From UHGV virus genome UHGV-0128973: a stretch of DNA of 64,000 nt; one strand, 5' to 3'. Shown piece by piece: positions 45,269 through 52,370 of the stretch. The translations under genes and the position numbers were made by a program. The notes beneath the pieces were generated by a model, which was not told where the DNA came from, did not search any database, and worked only from the letters and a program-made list of their open reading frames with translations. This DNA is from a virus. Numbering within the stretch: the first letter of the stretch is position 1; each line of letters opens with the position of its first letter.

Positions 45269-45464
45269 AATAATAAATTAATTAGTGCATATGCGCTCTT
45301 TGTGGTAGTGCACTTTAACATCGGGAGAATAATCGTGTCATCCAAGGTTAATTATGAGTCGCTGGCATCGGTCATGCCGCGTAATGAACAGGAAACAGAT
45401 GCTGTAGTGGACCCTGTAATCGCTGAAATGAATGCTCGCCTGGAGGCTGAATTTGCAGCTGAGA

Positions 45465-46094
45465 ATGAACATACCACCCAGGGCGACTAGGACTGTTTTT
45501 TGTGTCGGTAGCGGTCCGTCACTCACTCGCGAGGACTGTGCTGCTATAGAAAAAACTGGCTGTTCAATCATCGCGGTTAACAATTCCTGGCAGATGTTCG
45601 ATGACATTTATGCCTTATACGCCGGTGATTTGTCATGGTGGAAGCAATACGGATCCACCATACCGGGAGGGAGATTCCGCAAAGTGACAGCCAACCTGGC
45701 GGCGGCGAAATCATTTTCGTTGGAGTACAGGCGATATTGTGGACCGGCGGAAGGGGTAAATAGCGGCGCGCAGGCTATCAGTCTGGCTGCTGAATCAGGG
45801 GCTGAAGTAGTGGTATTAGTCGGCTATGACTGTTCTCTGCAAAACGGCCTTCATTGGCATGGCGCGCACCCTCAAGCACTACGGAATCCAACGCAGGTGT
45901 CTATTTCAAAATGGCAACAGCAGTTCCTGGATACCCGCAAAAAACACGCAGATTTACATATTTTGAATGCAAGTAGGAGCAGTGCAATTCAATGTTTCCC
46001 AAGAATAAATTTAGAGGCAGTGATCGCGTTATTATCGTCGGCAGTGGCCCAAGCGCCGCAAACTTTGTTGCGCCGCGCGGAGTGCCGATTATAG
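45465..46094 (+). CDS. Hypothetical protein with N-terminal VGSGPS motif, paralogue A (209 aa from ATG 45465)
   Basis: Track ORF 45432..46094; shares VGSGPS...IIAVN...LVGYDC/LVGVDA pattern with the next ORF. Confidence 0.45.
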   Translation: MNIPPRATRTVFCVGSGPSLTREDCAAIEKTGCSIIAVNNSWQMFDDIYALYAGDLSWWKQYGSTIPGGRFRKVTANLAAAKSFSLEYRRYCGPAEGVNSGAQAISLAAESGAEVVVLVGYDCSLQNGLHWHGAHPQALRNPTQVSISKWQQQFLDTRKKHADLHILNASRSSAIQCFPRINLEAVIALLSSAVAQAPQTLLRRAECRL

Positions 46095-46618
46095 CGGTCA
46101 ATGGGGCCATCGACTGGCTTAACCGCGCTTCTTATTTTTTCACCCTTGATCCATCGCCAGACAATATGCGGCGCGTTGGTCGTGGCCGCCGTCGCCGTGG
46201 TGTTTGTTATTGCATGGCACTACCCGATGTTAAAGAACGTGAAGTCAGAGACGGCGTTCTGTGCTTCCGTCGTGTGGCTGAACGTGGCATGGAGCCAAAA
46301 AATACGAATTCTCCCGAGTGGTGGGCGTGGCGCTGGTCCGCACATTTCGGACTTTGCGAAGATGAGAATGAAATTGCCAGCGGCAATAGTGCATATGGCG
46401 CTCTGAACCTGGCTTTCCATATCGGATTCAAACATGTCGCCCTGGTGGGCGTTGACGCTACACAAGAACCACGCGTTCACTCCGGCGGCACGCCAAAAAA
46501 TCTAAGTCACCTGCCTTTGTTATTCCAGTCTGCGCGTGAACAGATTGACGTTGTTTCATGCGGGAAAATGGGAGGTATTCCGCAGATGACTCTTAAAGAA
46601 TGGCTGAAGAATACATGA
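45992..46618 (+). CDS. Hypothetical protein with N-terminal VGSGPS motif, paralogue B (208 aa)
   Basis: ORF track; overlaps paralogue A by about 100 nt in another frame. Confidence 0.45.
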
Positions 46619-47292
46619 TGGCACCCACAATTTATCACCGTATCGACGGTACCAAATACAGGAATGTCTGGGTTGTTGGTGATCTGCATGGTTGCTACAC
46701 CAGACTGATGTCCGAACTCCATCGTGTGGATTTTGACCCGGCGCAGGATTTACTGATATCGGTCGGCGACCTTATCGATCGCGGTACTGAAAATGTCGAA
46801 TGTCTGGAACTATTGCAGATGCCCTGGTTCAGGGCAGTGATGGGGAACCATGAGCGGTTGATGCTCGATGCGTTAAGTCCTGATGGCAACGTGAATAACT
46901 GGCTAATGAATGGCGGACAATGGTTCTTCATGCTGGACACTGATCAGGAAATATTAGCCAGGGCGCTGGTGGAGCTGGTAAAGCGTCTGCCCTATATCAT
47001 TGAGTTGAACACCGGGCAAGAAACTATCGTTATAGCCCATGCCGACTATCCGGATAATGAATACCAATTCGGTAAGGAGGTGCCGCTTTTCAACGTTGTC
47101 TGGGCGCGCGAGCGTATCAGTGATTCGATGGATGATATTGGTGGCGAAATTTCGGGCGCAGATCGTTTTATCTTTGGTCACACTCCGGTGAAAAGCCCGA
47201 AGACATTCTGGAATCAGCAGTATATCGACACTGGTGCCGTATTTTGCGGAAACCTGACATTGATGAAAGTGAAAGGTGATGGTGCAGCATGA
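46600..47292 (+). CDS. ppp: Ser/Thr protein phosphatase (calcineurin-like metallophosphoesterase, lambda-PPase type)
   Basis: ORF track; motifs GDLHGC, GDLIDRG, GNHE. Confidence 0.75.
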
Positions 47293-47990
47293 AGATTGCT
47301 TTAGTTCTTCGCTCTGGTGGTGACTATAACGCTTCCGATGTGCAGTGGCTGGTTAATCAACTGCCAAAAGGCTATGAAATTATTTGCCTGACAGACCTGA
47401 AGCGTTTACATGTACCTGGCGTCAAAGTTGTCCCATTGATCAACCAGTGGCAAAAGTGCCGTGGCTGGTGGGCGAAAATCGAGTTGTTCCGACCGGATAT
47501 AACCGATGATCTGTTCTATCTGGATTTGGACACGGTTATTGCCGGTGATATACGCCCAATCCTAGAGCATCCACCAACCAGCTTCACCATGCTTAGGGAT
47601 TTTTACCATCCACAATATCGTGGCAGCGGTGCCCTGTGGATACCAAATAGTGTTAAAGCGCATATCTGGAGTTCATTCTGGCAAGATCCGGAAGGTTGGA
47701 TTTCTCGTTGTGTCACTACTGAGTGCTGGGGTGACCAGGGGTTCTTACGAAAGGTTATGGGCGATGATACACCAGCATTTCAGGATCTGTATCCAGGATG
47801 GTTTGTAAGTTACAAGGCCGATGTTGTGGAACCTGGTTCGAAATATGCAAGTGCGCGCTACTCCAGGGGGAATGGGGCATTACCAAAAGACTGCCGAATA
47901 ATCTTCTTCCATGGCAAACCGCGACCGCGTGAAGTGTCAGAGGATTGGCTTCCTCTCATTAGCGCGTTTTTTGAGCAAGAATCAGAATAA
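47289..47990 (+). CDS. Hypothetical protein (233 aa)
   Basis: ORF track; start overlaps ppp stop. Confidence 0.5.
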
Positions 47991-51056: not shown

Positions 51057-51059
51057 ACC

Positions 51060-51938
51060 GTGAGTATGCATCAAGTCGTCAGCTTTTCAGGTGGACGAAC
51101 ATCGGCTTATCTCGTTCATCTGATGGAAGCACAGCGAAAAGCTGGCGCTAGCGTCCATTTCATTTTTATGGATACCGGCTGTGAACATCCTCTGACGTAT
51201 CGCTTTATTCGTGAGGTTGTGAAGTTCTGGAACGTACCGCTAACGGTGTTGCAGGTCGATATAAATCCAGAACTTGGGCAGCCAAATGGTTATACGGAAT
51301 GGGAACCAAAGGATATTCAGACGCGAATGCCGGTGCTTAAACCGTTTATGGACATGGTTAAAAAGTACGGTACGCCATACATCGGCGGCGCGTTCTGTAC
51401 CGACAGGCTAAAACTCACCCCTTTCACGAAATATTGCGATGACCATTTTGGGCGAGGGAATTACATCACATGGCTCGGTATTCGTGCGGACGAACCCCGT
51501 AGGCTGAAACCGAAACCGGGCGTCCGGTATCTTGCCGAACTGTCAGATTTTGATAAGTCGGATGTTATCCGGTGGTGGCGAAAACAACCTTTTGATTTGC
51601 AAATCCCGGAGCACCTCGGGAACTGTGTTTTTTGCATCAAAAAGTCAACGCAAAAGCTGGGGCTTGCATGTAAAGACGAACCAGGTCTGATGCGGGTTTT
51701 TAATGAACTGGTTACAGGCAAACACGTCAGGGATGGTCATCGCAGAACAGGTAAAGACGTTATGTACCGTGGCCACCTGACGCTTGACGGGATTGCCAGA
51801 ATGTATGCCGACAGTGACTACAGAAATTTGTATCAGGCGATGGTGCTGGCCAAGCGGTTTGATACTGGTTCGTGTTCCGAATCATGTGAAATCTGGGGTG
51901 ACCAATTGGAGTTGAAATTCGAAGAGGTAGTGGAATGA
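51060..51938 (+). CDS. pap: PAPS-reductase-like (PP-loop ATP pyrophosphatase family) protein
   Basis: ORF track; PP-loop SFSGGRTS at the N-terminus and conserved cysteines. Confidence 0.7.
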   Translation: MSMHQVVSFSGGRTSAYLVHLMEAQRKAGASVHFIFMDTGCEHPLTYRFIREVVKFWNVPLTVLQVDINPELGQPNGYTEWEPKDIQTRMPVLKPFMDMVKKYGTPYIGGAFCTDRLKLTPFTKYCDDHFGRGNYITWLGIRADEPRRLKPKPGVRYLAELSDFDKSDVIRWWRKQPFDLQIPEHLGNCVFCIKKSTQKLGLACKDEPGLMRVFNELVTGKHVRDGHRRTGKDVMYRGHLTLDGIARMYADSDYRNLYQAMVLAKRFDTGSCSESCEIWGDQLELKFEEVVE

Positions 51939-52138
51939 CAATCGTAAAAACCCATACCGGTACCGTGATCACCAAAGATGGCCCGAAGGTAAAAAAACTG
52001 CACCAAACAGAGCGGATGTGGGTCGTTGGCAAAAACGAGTTTTACCACAAAGAAACTGGACGCCGCCATTTTGCAGAAAATACGCGCCGCCGACTGCTGT
52101 TAGACACCATCAAGCCTATCGAGGTGAAGCATGTTTAA
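51935..52138 (+). CDS. Small hypothetical protein (67 aa)
   Basis: ORF track; start overlaps pap stop. Confidence 0.45.
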   Translation: MTIVKTHTGTVITKDGPKVKKLHQTERMWVVGKNEFYHKETGRRHFAENTRRRLLLDTIKPIEVKHV

Positions 52139-52370
52139 ACAGAACGAAAAAGCTATCGCTCAAATTGCTGATTATATCCCGCGTGCGTGCCGGGGTATGC
52201 AGTTGCAGGAAGCCAAAGCGCGCCTGGAGAAAAAAATTGCGCTCTATATTGATGACGGCTGTGATTCCGCCGTTCTTAACGCGGCGTTCGCACCAGCTCT
52301 TAACTGTCACACTCGGGAGTCTTTTTTTTCGTGCATCGCAGCGCAACTCCGCCAAGGAGGCAACCAGTGA
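52131..52370 (+). CDS. Small hypothetical protein (79 aa)
   Basis: ORF track; overlapping coupled arrangement. Confidence 0.45.
   Translation: MFKQNEKAIAQIADYIPRACRGMQLQEAKARLEKKIALYIDDGCDSAVLNAAFAPALNCHTRESFFSCIAAQLRQGGNQ

Follow-up and report, generated by a model that had tools for sequence, protein, structure and literature searches.

Do the enzyme-like genes packed into positions 45335-52370 of the virus genome UHGV-0128973 work towards a common end? A preliminary description of this genome (here "the window", the whole 64,000-nucleotide stretch of DNA that was analysed) saw in these positions a C1-controlled early cluster of enzyme-like genes, reminiscent of one nucleotide- or DNA-modification or host-takeover module, while noting that no single known pathway was obvious. 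The latter judgement is borne out, as no one pathway fits. The former is not, because only three of the genes, pmgO, pmgP and pmgQ, co-occur outside P1-like elements, and one pathway for all the enzymes was rejected for that reason. We consider it probable that the region is a mosaic of independent functions, and that it contains a conserved glycosyltransferase-type trio formed by these three genes.

The window is a P1-like phage-plasmid. In megablast searches against phage genomes, 45335-52370 is 98-99% identical to bacteriophage P1 and P1-like phages, and the match to P1 itself (NC_005856) has 98.7% identity over query positions 1-5688, i.e. to about position 51022 of the window. From 45335 to ~51022 the gene order pmgN-pmgO-pmgP-ppp-pmgQ-pmgR-pmgS-pap-pmgT is collinear with the annotated P1 genes. 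Each open reading frame (ORF) of the previously described cluster was found where it had been placed, and each in the P1 portion matches an annotated P1 gene. Judged by its sequence, the stretch is a known, long-annotated and mostly dispensable P1 accessory region with an imported lambdoid cassette. The region itself was thus already known and annotated, with published null phenotypes for most of its genes; the prediction for the trio is the only new lead. The three genes are:

pmgO, 45432-46094, + strand: first member of the trio; predicted Maf / GT42 sialyltransferase / MptE fold, with GSGPS, NSG, GYDCS and HWHG motifs
pmgP, 45992-46618, + strand: distant paralogue of pmgO without HWHG, overlapping it by 103 nucleotides; best conserved of the trio
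pmgQ, 47289-47990, + strand: third member; predicted GT-A fold, GT8-like retaining glycosyltransferase, with D79-L-D81 and H208

The overlapping pair is read in different frames, and both proteins carry the VGSGPS motif from which their kinship had first been proposed. That kinship is real but distant. In a pairwise BLASTP comparison PmgO and PmgP share 14/36 identities (E=0.003), each matches the other's PHROG, and a joint family alignment has SGPS / AVN / D / WW / NS(G/A) / G-D motifs common to both. A fold prediction of a PmgO-PmgP fusion from a joint alignment was dropped, as MAFFT put all PmgO homologues on the PmgP half, itself evidence of paralogy, and PmgO was modelled alone. Taken together, these sequence comparisons make the two proteins true but distant paralogues.

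The PmgO model (41 homologues) has a predicted local distance difference test score (pLDDT) of 86, and above 90 over most of residues 21-200. Its fold is of the Maf/GT42 type with GxGPS and (T/N)SG...G-x-D motifs; structural matches at lower scores include thiamine pyrophosphokinases and mammalian sialyltransferases. In the family profile, SGPS and NSG...LGYD align to GNGPS and TSG...SGID of the sialyltransferase Cst-II, with E-values that are not significant. H141-x-H143, within HWHG, is invariant in the PmgO family, and the motif does not occur in the PmgP family (328 PmgP homologues collected); by analogy with GT42 enzymes it holds a candidate catalytic histidine. Neither PmgO (23.4 bits) nor PmgP (20.9 bits) of the window reaches the gathering threshold of PF01973 (MptE-like/Maf, DUF115; 34.6 bits), which is passed by homologues and by a natural fusion of the two described below (44.6 bits); many homologues carry precomputed PF01973 matches. 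Translation of pmgO may in truth begin at an internal ATG (45465): the annotated start lies in an overlap with pmgN, the model shows disorder over the first ~20 residues, and residue 20 is roughly where most homologues begin.

PmgQ was modelled with AlphaFold2 (AF2) from 54 sequences at a pLDDT of 95.2. Its best Foldseek match in the PDB is the Skp1 alpha-galactosyltransferase (6mw5, E 1e-8), followed by glycogenin, WbbM, GlyE and LgtC (E 1e-8 to 1e-7), and the top 50 matches are mostly GT8 enzymes (E 1e-8 to 1e-6). The protein combines a GT-A fold, a DxD motif of the metal/nucleotide-sugar-binding kind and a C-terminal histidine; in the family alignment D79 and D81 are invariant and H208 is near-invariant (>=90%). 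At the sequence level PmgQ has no Pfam match (including Glyco_transf_8) or NCBIfam match even at E<=1, and phmmer gives the one hint, a weak similarity to 6mw5 (E 0.09). None of the proteins examined has a hydrophobic segment. Against P1-like relatives of 60-78% amino-acid identity, nonsynonymous divergence (dN) is 0.15-0.35 while synonymous sites are saturated; together with the intact ORFs, this indicates that the genes are maintained by purifying selection.

To see where the three genes occur elsewhere, we collected homologues of PmgQ, PmgO and PmgP, fetched their flanks, and searched these with hidden Markov models of the trio and with every other protein of the region, which gave ~30 non-P1 loci. 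Counted as independent lineages, O, P and Q occur together in eight, O and Q in seven, P and Q in four, and O and P at contig ends in two; since the loci were gathered by searching with the trio itself, these counts show linkage and are not an unbiased census. The eight complete lineages (L012/L090, L013, L099-103, L105, L106, L111, L112 and L118) are part of a set of hosts that spans Gamma-, Beta- and Alphaproteobacteria, Bacteroidota and Gemmatimonadota, with examples in Enterobacteriaceae, Pseudomonas, Zhongshania, Brevundimonas, Mesorhizobium, a member of the Methylophilaceae, Sinomicrobium (Bacteroidota) and a Longimicrobiales metagenome-assembled genome. Within 8 kb of the trio in the non-P1 loci examined, none of Ppp, Pap, PmgR, PmgS, PmgT or the phosphoadenosine phosphosulfate (PAPS) reductase-like protein was found. 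Only P1-like phages, even those that have diverged to ~70% identity, have the phosphatase gene ppp between pmgP and pmgQ. In one phage contig with a P22-type portal, a 376-amino-acid protein (P0171, L013 8001-9131) is a natural PmgO-PmgP fusion, with a PmgQ-like gene after it and lysis genes beside it. A PmgQ profile scan of viral contigs returned nearly all near-identical P1-like sequences, with only 6/80 distant.

The neighbourhoods of these loci point towards virion genes. Trio homologues stand beside capsid, portal or terminase genes in at least ten unrelated prophages. In Onishia, Martelella, Zhongshania and Pseudomonas, HK97-like prophages (L003, L004/5, L105, L118) have them immediately behind the gene for the major capsid protein; elsewhere they lie after TerL in Commensalibacter (L106), after a MuF-like head gene in Brevundimonas (L111), and after a portal gene or a collagen-repeat protein in Mesorhizobium and Enterovirga (L115, L117). 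In three lambdoid-type prophages (L012, L013, L014) they lie between lysis and terminase genes. Often the neighbours also include S-adenosylmethionine-dependent methyltransferases, FkbM-type enzymes among them, and a further protein that resembles nucleotide-sugar transferases, partners that one would expect where a glycan is built.

In the Enterovirga prophage (L117 6188-8273), the gene between the portal gene and the PmgO-like gene encodes a protein of collagen-triple-helix repeats. Since collagen-like repeats bear glycans in Bacillus spores and in certain giant viruses, this protein is a candidate substrate. The core chromosome of Pantoea floridensis carries a lone PmgQ-like gene between lpdA and acnB (L009/L010 8001-8633), in surroundings that hold no phage genes.

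Five enterobacterial species (UBA7338 and four Pseudescherichia; L099-L103) carry a chromosomal trio that surrounds an inverse-autotransporter adhesin. The adhesin has 1178 amino acids, with an IAT_beta domain and seven Big_1 domains, and is 83-89% identical among the five species; PmgO follows it by 61 nucleotides on the same strand, and further Big_1/RCC1-repeat proteins are encoded nearby. This island may be an adhesin glycosylation locus. A Buttiauxella locus (L110), whose fimbrial genes had made it a candidate for a second non-phage context, was rejected, since a LydA-type holin, a lysozyme and an Rz-like gene mark it as a prophage remnant.

adhesin island, L099 3357-9248 (and L100-L103): IAT_beta/Big_1 adhesin with PmgO-, PmgP- and PmgQ-like genes

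The control elements of the region bear on when the trio would be expressed in P1-like phages. The C1 operator is a 17-bp asymmetric site, and scanning the whole window with the consensus ATTGCTCTAATAAATTT at up to 3 mismatches gave 11 matches against 0.32 expected, with 3 inside 45335-52370. They lie at 47992 (+), 48041 (-) and 50133 (+), in line with the three operator copies noticed earlier; a fourth, Op83, lies just to the left. The control elements, from left to right, are:

late promoter LPpmgL, 44335..44353, + strand: annotated in P1; upstream of pmgL-pmgM and, by read-through, of pmgN-pmgQ; left of 45335-52370
C1 operator Op82/O26, 44368..44384, - strand: in front of pmgL; 2 mismatches to the consensus; P1 annotation
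C1 operator Op83/Oppp, 45275..45291, - strand: before pmgN; P1 annotation; 4 mismatches, beyond the 3-mismatch scan
C1 operator Op86a (OpmgRa), 47992..48008, + strand: before pmgR; 3 mismatches; P1 annotation
C1 operator Op86b (OpmgRb), 48041..48057, - strand: before pmgR; 3 mismatches; P1 annotation
intrinsic terminator-like hairpin, 49574..49602, + strand: after pmgS; 11-bp stem with 6 GC pairs, then a T-run
C1 operator Op88 (OpmgT), 50133..50149, + strand: before pmgT; 1 mismatch; P1 annotation

The upstream control region (window 44290-44445) is 100% identical to P1. C1 repression of the window's genes rests on the matching operator sequences and the annotation of the P1 record, which together suggest three repressed units: pmgN-pmgQ behind Op83, pmgR-pmgS behind Op86a/b and ended by the terminator, and pmgT onward behind Op88. 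The pmgN-pmgQ unit would also be reached by read-through from LPpmgL. The earlier label of a C1-controlled early cluster therefore holds for the operators and the enzyme-like genes, but "early" is incomplete, as the leftmost operon lies downstream of a late promoter. Next to the trio's unit stands a gene with a proven role in morphogenesis:

pmgR, 48072-48290, + strand: 72 amino acids

Knockout of pmgR leaves unjoined heads and tails, and the defect is complemented in trans (PMC9024508), which makes its product a head-completion factor.

The most economical reading of pmgO-pmgP-pmgQ that these data suggest is a cytoplasmic protein-glycosylation module. It draws on the folds and the fusion protein, on the methyltransferases and additional transferases found as partners, on the positions in head-gene clusters and on the adhesin-linked chromosomal copies. 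We infer that PmgO and PmgP, as Maf/sialyltransferase-fold paralogues, probably work as a pair (a heterodimer), and that PmgQ would transfer sugars from nucleotide donors as a metal-dependent, retaining enzyme of the GT8 type. Soluble and cytoplasmic, the three proteins would build a short glycan on a protein substrate from nucleotide sugars of the host. Given the fold families and what E. coli can supply, likely donors are an ulosonic acid activated with cytidine monophosphate (CMP), e.g. CMP-3-deoxy-D-manno-octulosonic acid (CMP-Kdo), for the Maf-like pair, and a uridine diphosphate (UDP)-hexose for PmgQ. The phage substrate would most likely be a head protein or another virion protein made at the same time; the proven head-completion gene next door and the late promoter upstream are in keeping with this. 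That the target is a virion protein is nonetheless a tentative assignment, to which we give somewhat less than an even chance. Were it so, the label of "putative morphogenetic" function would be revived in a different sense. For the combined explanation, a mosaic region whose trio glycosylates a protein, likely of the virion, a single compromise figure would leave it evenly balanced between right and wrong. More doubtful still is the full proposal that P1 and many other phages of Gram-negative bacteria carry an unrecognised Maf-like PmgO/PmgP heterodimer which, with PmgQ, glycosylates a protein of the virion and, in certain enterobacteria, an intimin-like adhesin, possibly with a glycan that includes Kdo.

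Several substantial points weigh against protein glycosylation by the trio, besides the way in which the loci were gathered. The fold of PmgO is also found in pyrophosphokinases (MptE and thiamine pyrophosphokinase), so that the fold leaves transferase chemistry unproven; the trio proteins of the window fall below Pfam thresholds, PmgQ lacking any Pfam match; and GT8 enzymes also act on lipopolysaccharide (LPS) cores. Unrelated cargo genes, too, are commonly found behind the capsid gene or in the interval from lysis to terminase genes, and in one phage (L112) the trio is flanked not by head genes but by those for DNA polymerase and ribonucleotide reductase. A glycan on the P1 virion is unreported: the P1 proteome and P1 capsid cryo-electron microscopy papers do not mention glycosylation, which standard proteomics would not detect, and we found neither P1 virion glycosylation nor a described function of pmgO, pmgP or pmgQ in the literature searched. 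All three genes are non-essential in deletion and CRISPR interference (CRISPRi) screens, with plaques unaffected (PMC10695390).

Among the alternatives, the one that survives best, though we regard it as unlikely, is that the trio modifies the host envelope, e.g. the LPS core that is the P1 receptor, either to block superinfection or to keep progeny from sticking to debris. GT8 includes LPS-core and lipooligosaccharide enzymes such as LgtC, and in the lambdoid prophages the trio's place between lysis and terminase genes is a classic cargo position. In the HK97-like prophages, however, it sits inside the late head operon, and the chromosomal copies flank adhesin genes, not LPS genes. C1 repression would also keep the genes silent in lysogens, which argues against lysogenic conversion, and LPS made late in infection would have little time to reach the surface. 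The fusion P0171 has a faint precomputed match to WaaZ_KDO_III, which would favour an envelope role through likeness to a Kdo transferase; it was not reproduced with Pfam and we set it aside.

An activity on small molecules has appreciably less to recommend it. PmgO and PmgP could be like MptE and thiamine pyrophosphokinase, pyrophosphorylating a small molecule, with PmgQ using or making a related metabolite, and the Pfam family they approach is indeed named after MptE. Their motifs, though, align to a sialyltransferase, their constant partner is GT8-like, and methyltransferases and a further protein resembling sugar transferases often accompany them; we give this little credence.

The other genes of the P1 portion seem to have separate functions. 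They are:

pmgN, 45335-45490, + strand: 51 amino acids, no assigned function; phrog_2350
ppp, 46600-47292, + strand: predicted lambda NinI-type Mn-dependent Ser/Thr phosphatase, between pmgP and pmgQ
pmgS, 48292-49554, + strand: 420-amino-acid coiled-coil protein; phrog_1660; weak SMC/Rad50 coiled-coil matches; non-essential
pap, 49627-50133, + strand: predicted HAD phosphatase of the PNKP 3'-phosphatase type; phrog_415
pmgT, 50328-51056, + strand: 242 amino acids; belongs to a very large, uncharacterised family of phage proteins; homologous to P1 up to about 51022

The lambda-type Ser/Thr phosphatase and the HAD-family phosphatase-like protein recognised from the first reading are ppp and pap. 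Ppp is calcineurin-like (PF00149 Metallophos 59.4 bits, cut-off 21.5), belongs with NinI-like proteins in phrog_246 (E 5e-113), and scores 275 bits against the NCBIfam PrpA equivalog, under its strict cut-off of 326; it would be a lambda-type phosphatase whose insertion into the trio is confined to the P1 lineage. Pap matches HAD_PNKP (PF25109, 46.5 bits, cut-off 27.6), has VDIDGT, a DxDGT nucleophile motif, in its translation, and has no kinase domain; it would be a 3'-phosphatase-type enzyme acting separately from the trio. Its gene stands alone between the pmgR-pmgS terminator and Op88, and a second strong terminator-like hairpin at 50204-50182 (-) means that pap is bracketed by one on each strand.

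No Pfam model covers the family of PmgT, and no PDB sequence matches the protein. A search at E<=1e-3 counted 45,690 cluster representatives of the family; at E<=1e-10 there are 35,231. The copy in the window ends ...NPWVWVIEFKR, as the family does (...VIEFKR), and from this shared end it follows that the 309-residue PmgT of P1 has an extra C-terminal extension and that the window copy is not truncated. Its N-terminus, ILEGRKTQTRR, weakly resembles ASCH domains, with a 23-residue match to E. coli YqfB at an hhalign probability of 16%.

Published data on pmgN conflict: the table of PMC10695390 lists it as essential by CRISPRi, yet as dispensable in the deletion survey that it cites. The knockdown may have been polar on genes further along the operon, although these are non-essential too. 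Apart from pmgR, the genes of the region score as non-essential by deletion (PMC10695390 table, citing the deletion survey).

A glycosyltransferase-like ORF had also been drawn into the cluster from further upstream:

dbn, 38499-39497, + strand: downstream of ban; weak GT-B/GT4-like C-terminal half

This is P1 dbn, which is not part of the cluster, and its likeness to glycosyltransferases is weak (Glycos_transf_1 25 bits, cut-off 26.4). A Dbn homologue (E 5e-61) lies in the Buttiauxella prophage remnant (L110 11515-12501), 3 kb from PmgQ- and PmgP-like genes, a single co-occurrence which hints that Dbn might work with the trio.

Downstream of pmgT the origin of the DNA changes. P1 homology stops near 51022 and homology to Shiga toxin (Stx) phages begins at 51069 (megablast), placing the left recombination junction within the last 35 nucleotides of pmgT. 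The cassette that follows is of lambdoid origin:

PAPS-reductase-like PP-loop protein, 51060-51938, + strand: SFSGGRTS motif, DndC/SspD-like; first cassette gene
two small coupled ORFs, 51935..52370, + strand: 67 and 79 amino acids; same order in Shigella phage Ss-VASD; no family matches
Ead/Ea22-like protein, 52367..53053, + strand: PF13935 60 bits; the cassette runs on past 52370

From 51060 to ~54500 the cassette holds the PAPS-like gene, the two small ORFs, the Ea22-like gene, a 49-residue ORF and a 424-residue ORF, and is of the lambdoid early-left ("ea") type; 51069-52370 is ~93% identical to lambdoid phages of the Stx-converting/Ss-VASD type. In Ss-VASD itself, the PAPS-like gene, two small ORFs, Ea22-like gene and a DUF551 gene follow RecT, exonuclease and single-stranded-DNA-binding protein in the early-left operon. 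This variant downstream of pmgT is present in many P1-like plasmids of PLSDB. The PAPS-like gene occurs neither in P1 itself nor in some P1-like relatives, and at least one relative (L096) has the two small ORFs without it; as parts of an inserted cassette, all three were rejected as members of the P1 cluster. What stands of the earlier assignment is the domain, which is real in the N-terminal part (PF01507 37.7 bits, cut-off 22.5, residues 6-72). The best PADLOC match is SspD (E 1.8e-13, residues 5-148), with BrxP and DndC weak, and the NCBIfam DndC equivalog gives 17.8 bits against a cut-off of 290. No partner of the DndADE/SspABC type (cysteine desulfurase, DndD/SspC ATPase, DndE/SspB) adjoins the gene here or in Ss-VASD. 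Phage PAPS reductases have been described as DndC/SspD homologues in variable regions, one of them reported to help its phage evade Dnd (PMC13551039, 2026, Aca operons). The gene is best taken for a DndC/SspD-like anti-defence candidate that stands on its own and has no relation to the other genes here.

This gene also speaks for the reading raised in the preliminary description, that the cluster alters phage DNA or nucleotides, e.g. by glycosylating them or inserting sulfur, as a means of escaping restriction and other defences. SspD, DndC and BrxP, which its product resembles, act on DNA; the genes of the cluster would be derepressed once C1 is inactivated; the trio of L112 is placed among replication genes, and L012 has three DNA methyltransferase genes nearby. 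Annotation of the region, however, turned up no base-modifying enzyme: between 44690 and 53053, searches with Pfam, NCBIfam, PHROGs and PADLOC found no hydroxymethylase, TET/JBP, deoxynucleoside monophosphate or 5-hydroxymethyldeoxyuridine kinase, DpdA or other base-preparing enzyme. Only the PAPS-like gene fits a DNA-modification or anti-defence role, and it is the separate import described above. Most trio loci lie in head-gene modules of small prophages without DNA-modification genes. P1 DNA is cut normally by common restriction enzymes, methylation effects aside. A lack of phenotype for the cluster, which would speak against such a module, is in part already in print: of 29 single-gene P1 pmg/upf knockouts, 24 have no plaquing defect, and in these anti-restriction is unchanged (PMC9024508). 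We therefore hold modification of DNA or nucleotides by the cluster to be improbable.

That the enzyme-like genes are functionless passengers kept by linkage is barely credible: they are dispensable in two independent laboratory screens, but selection maintains their ORFs, the trio is conserved across phyla and even exists with two members fused, and the predicted active-site motifs are invariant.

Separating one conserved three-gene sugar-transferase module from unrelated surrounding genes gives pmgO, pmgP and pmgQ, which have carried the label "putative morphogenetic function" since 2004 with no laboratory phenotype, a testable prediction: protein glycosylation, probably of the virion. Apparently new here are the trio as a conserved module over several bacterial phyla, its fusion form, and its steady association with head genes and an adhesin, for which we found no description in the literature searched. 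If the prediction is right, glycan-coated virions would be found not only among mycobacteriophages but also among phages of Gram-negative hosts, which matters for phage stability, for host range and for how the immune system recognises phages used in therapy. The retention of genes whose deletion or silencing leaves plaques unaffected would then be accounted for, and one of the oldest model phages would provide the first description of virion glycosylation in a phage of Gram-negative bacteria.

How does the region compare with known systems? Its closest counterpart is the pmgN-pmgV/ppp/pap region of P1 (annotation of Lobocka et al. 2004; NC_005856), which it resembles in gene order, C1 operators and 98-99% nucleotide identity. 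It differs downstream, where the C-terminal extension of pmgT, pmgU and pmgV of P1 are not present past pmgT in the window, the lambdoid cassette replacing them. The PAPS-like protein shares its N-terminal PP-loop domain with DndC, SspD and BrxP of DNA phosphorothioation and BREX type 4, but matches them only over its first ~150 residues, has no adjacent partners, and comes from a lambdoid early-left setting.

Within the trio, PmgQ is like the GT8 enzymes glycogenin, Skp1 alpha-galactosyltransferase, GlyE and LgtC, several of which extend glycans on proteins, in its GT-A fold, DxD and C-terminal histidine. It has 12-17% sequence identity to them and template-modelling (TM) scores of 0.5-0.6, is shorter (~200-230 residues), and lacks a Glyco_transf_8 match. 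Compared with the Maf (PF01973/DUF115) flagellin glycosyltransferases and with GT42 Cst-I/II, PmgO and PmgP are minimal (~200 residues), without the flanking domains of Maf, and are two diverged paralogues, once fused, that stay below the Pfam threshold; here the likeness is one of predicted fold and motifs. Cytoplasmic glycosylation of autotransporter adhesins is performed by the heptosyltransferases Aah and TibC and by HMW1C. These are soluble transferases that adjoin their adhesin, like the trio of UBA7338 and Pseudescherichia, whose enzyme families are unrelated to them and for which gene linkage is what points to adhesin modification.

Phage-encoded virion glycosylation is described for mycobacteriophages Che8 and Rita (PMC11256854, citing Freeman et al. 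2023), and capsid glycosylation from chloroviruses (PMC7019647). Enzyme families and hosts differ from those considered here, where the trio is known from genes and no glycan has been observed on P1 or the other Gram-negative phages concerned. In Maravista the glycosylation genes lie near the right genome end, unlike the trio, and those of Che8 are placed likewise. What these systems have in common is that virus-encoded glycosyltransferases, often with methyltransferases, are proposed or shown to decorate capsid proteins. The trio fits this pattern, as its homologues in prophages lie together with structural genes, beside those for the capsid, and in P1 a late promoter lies upstream.

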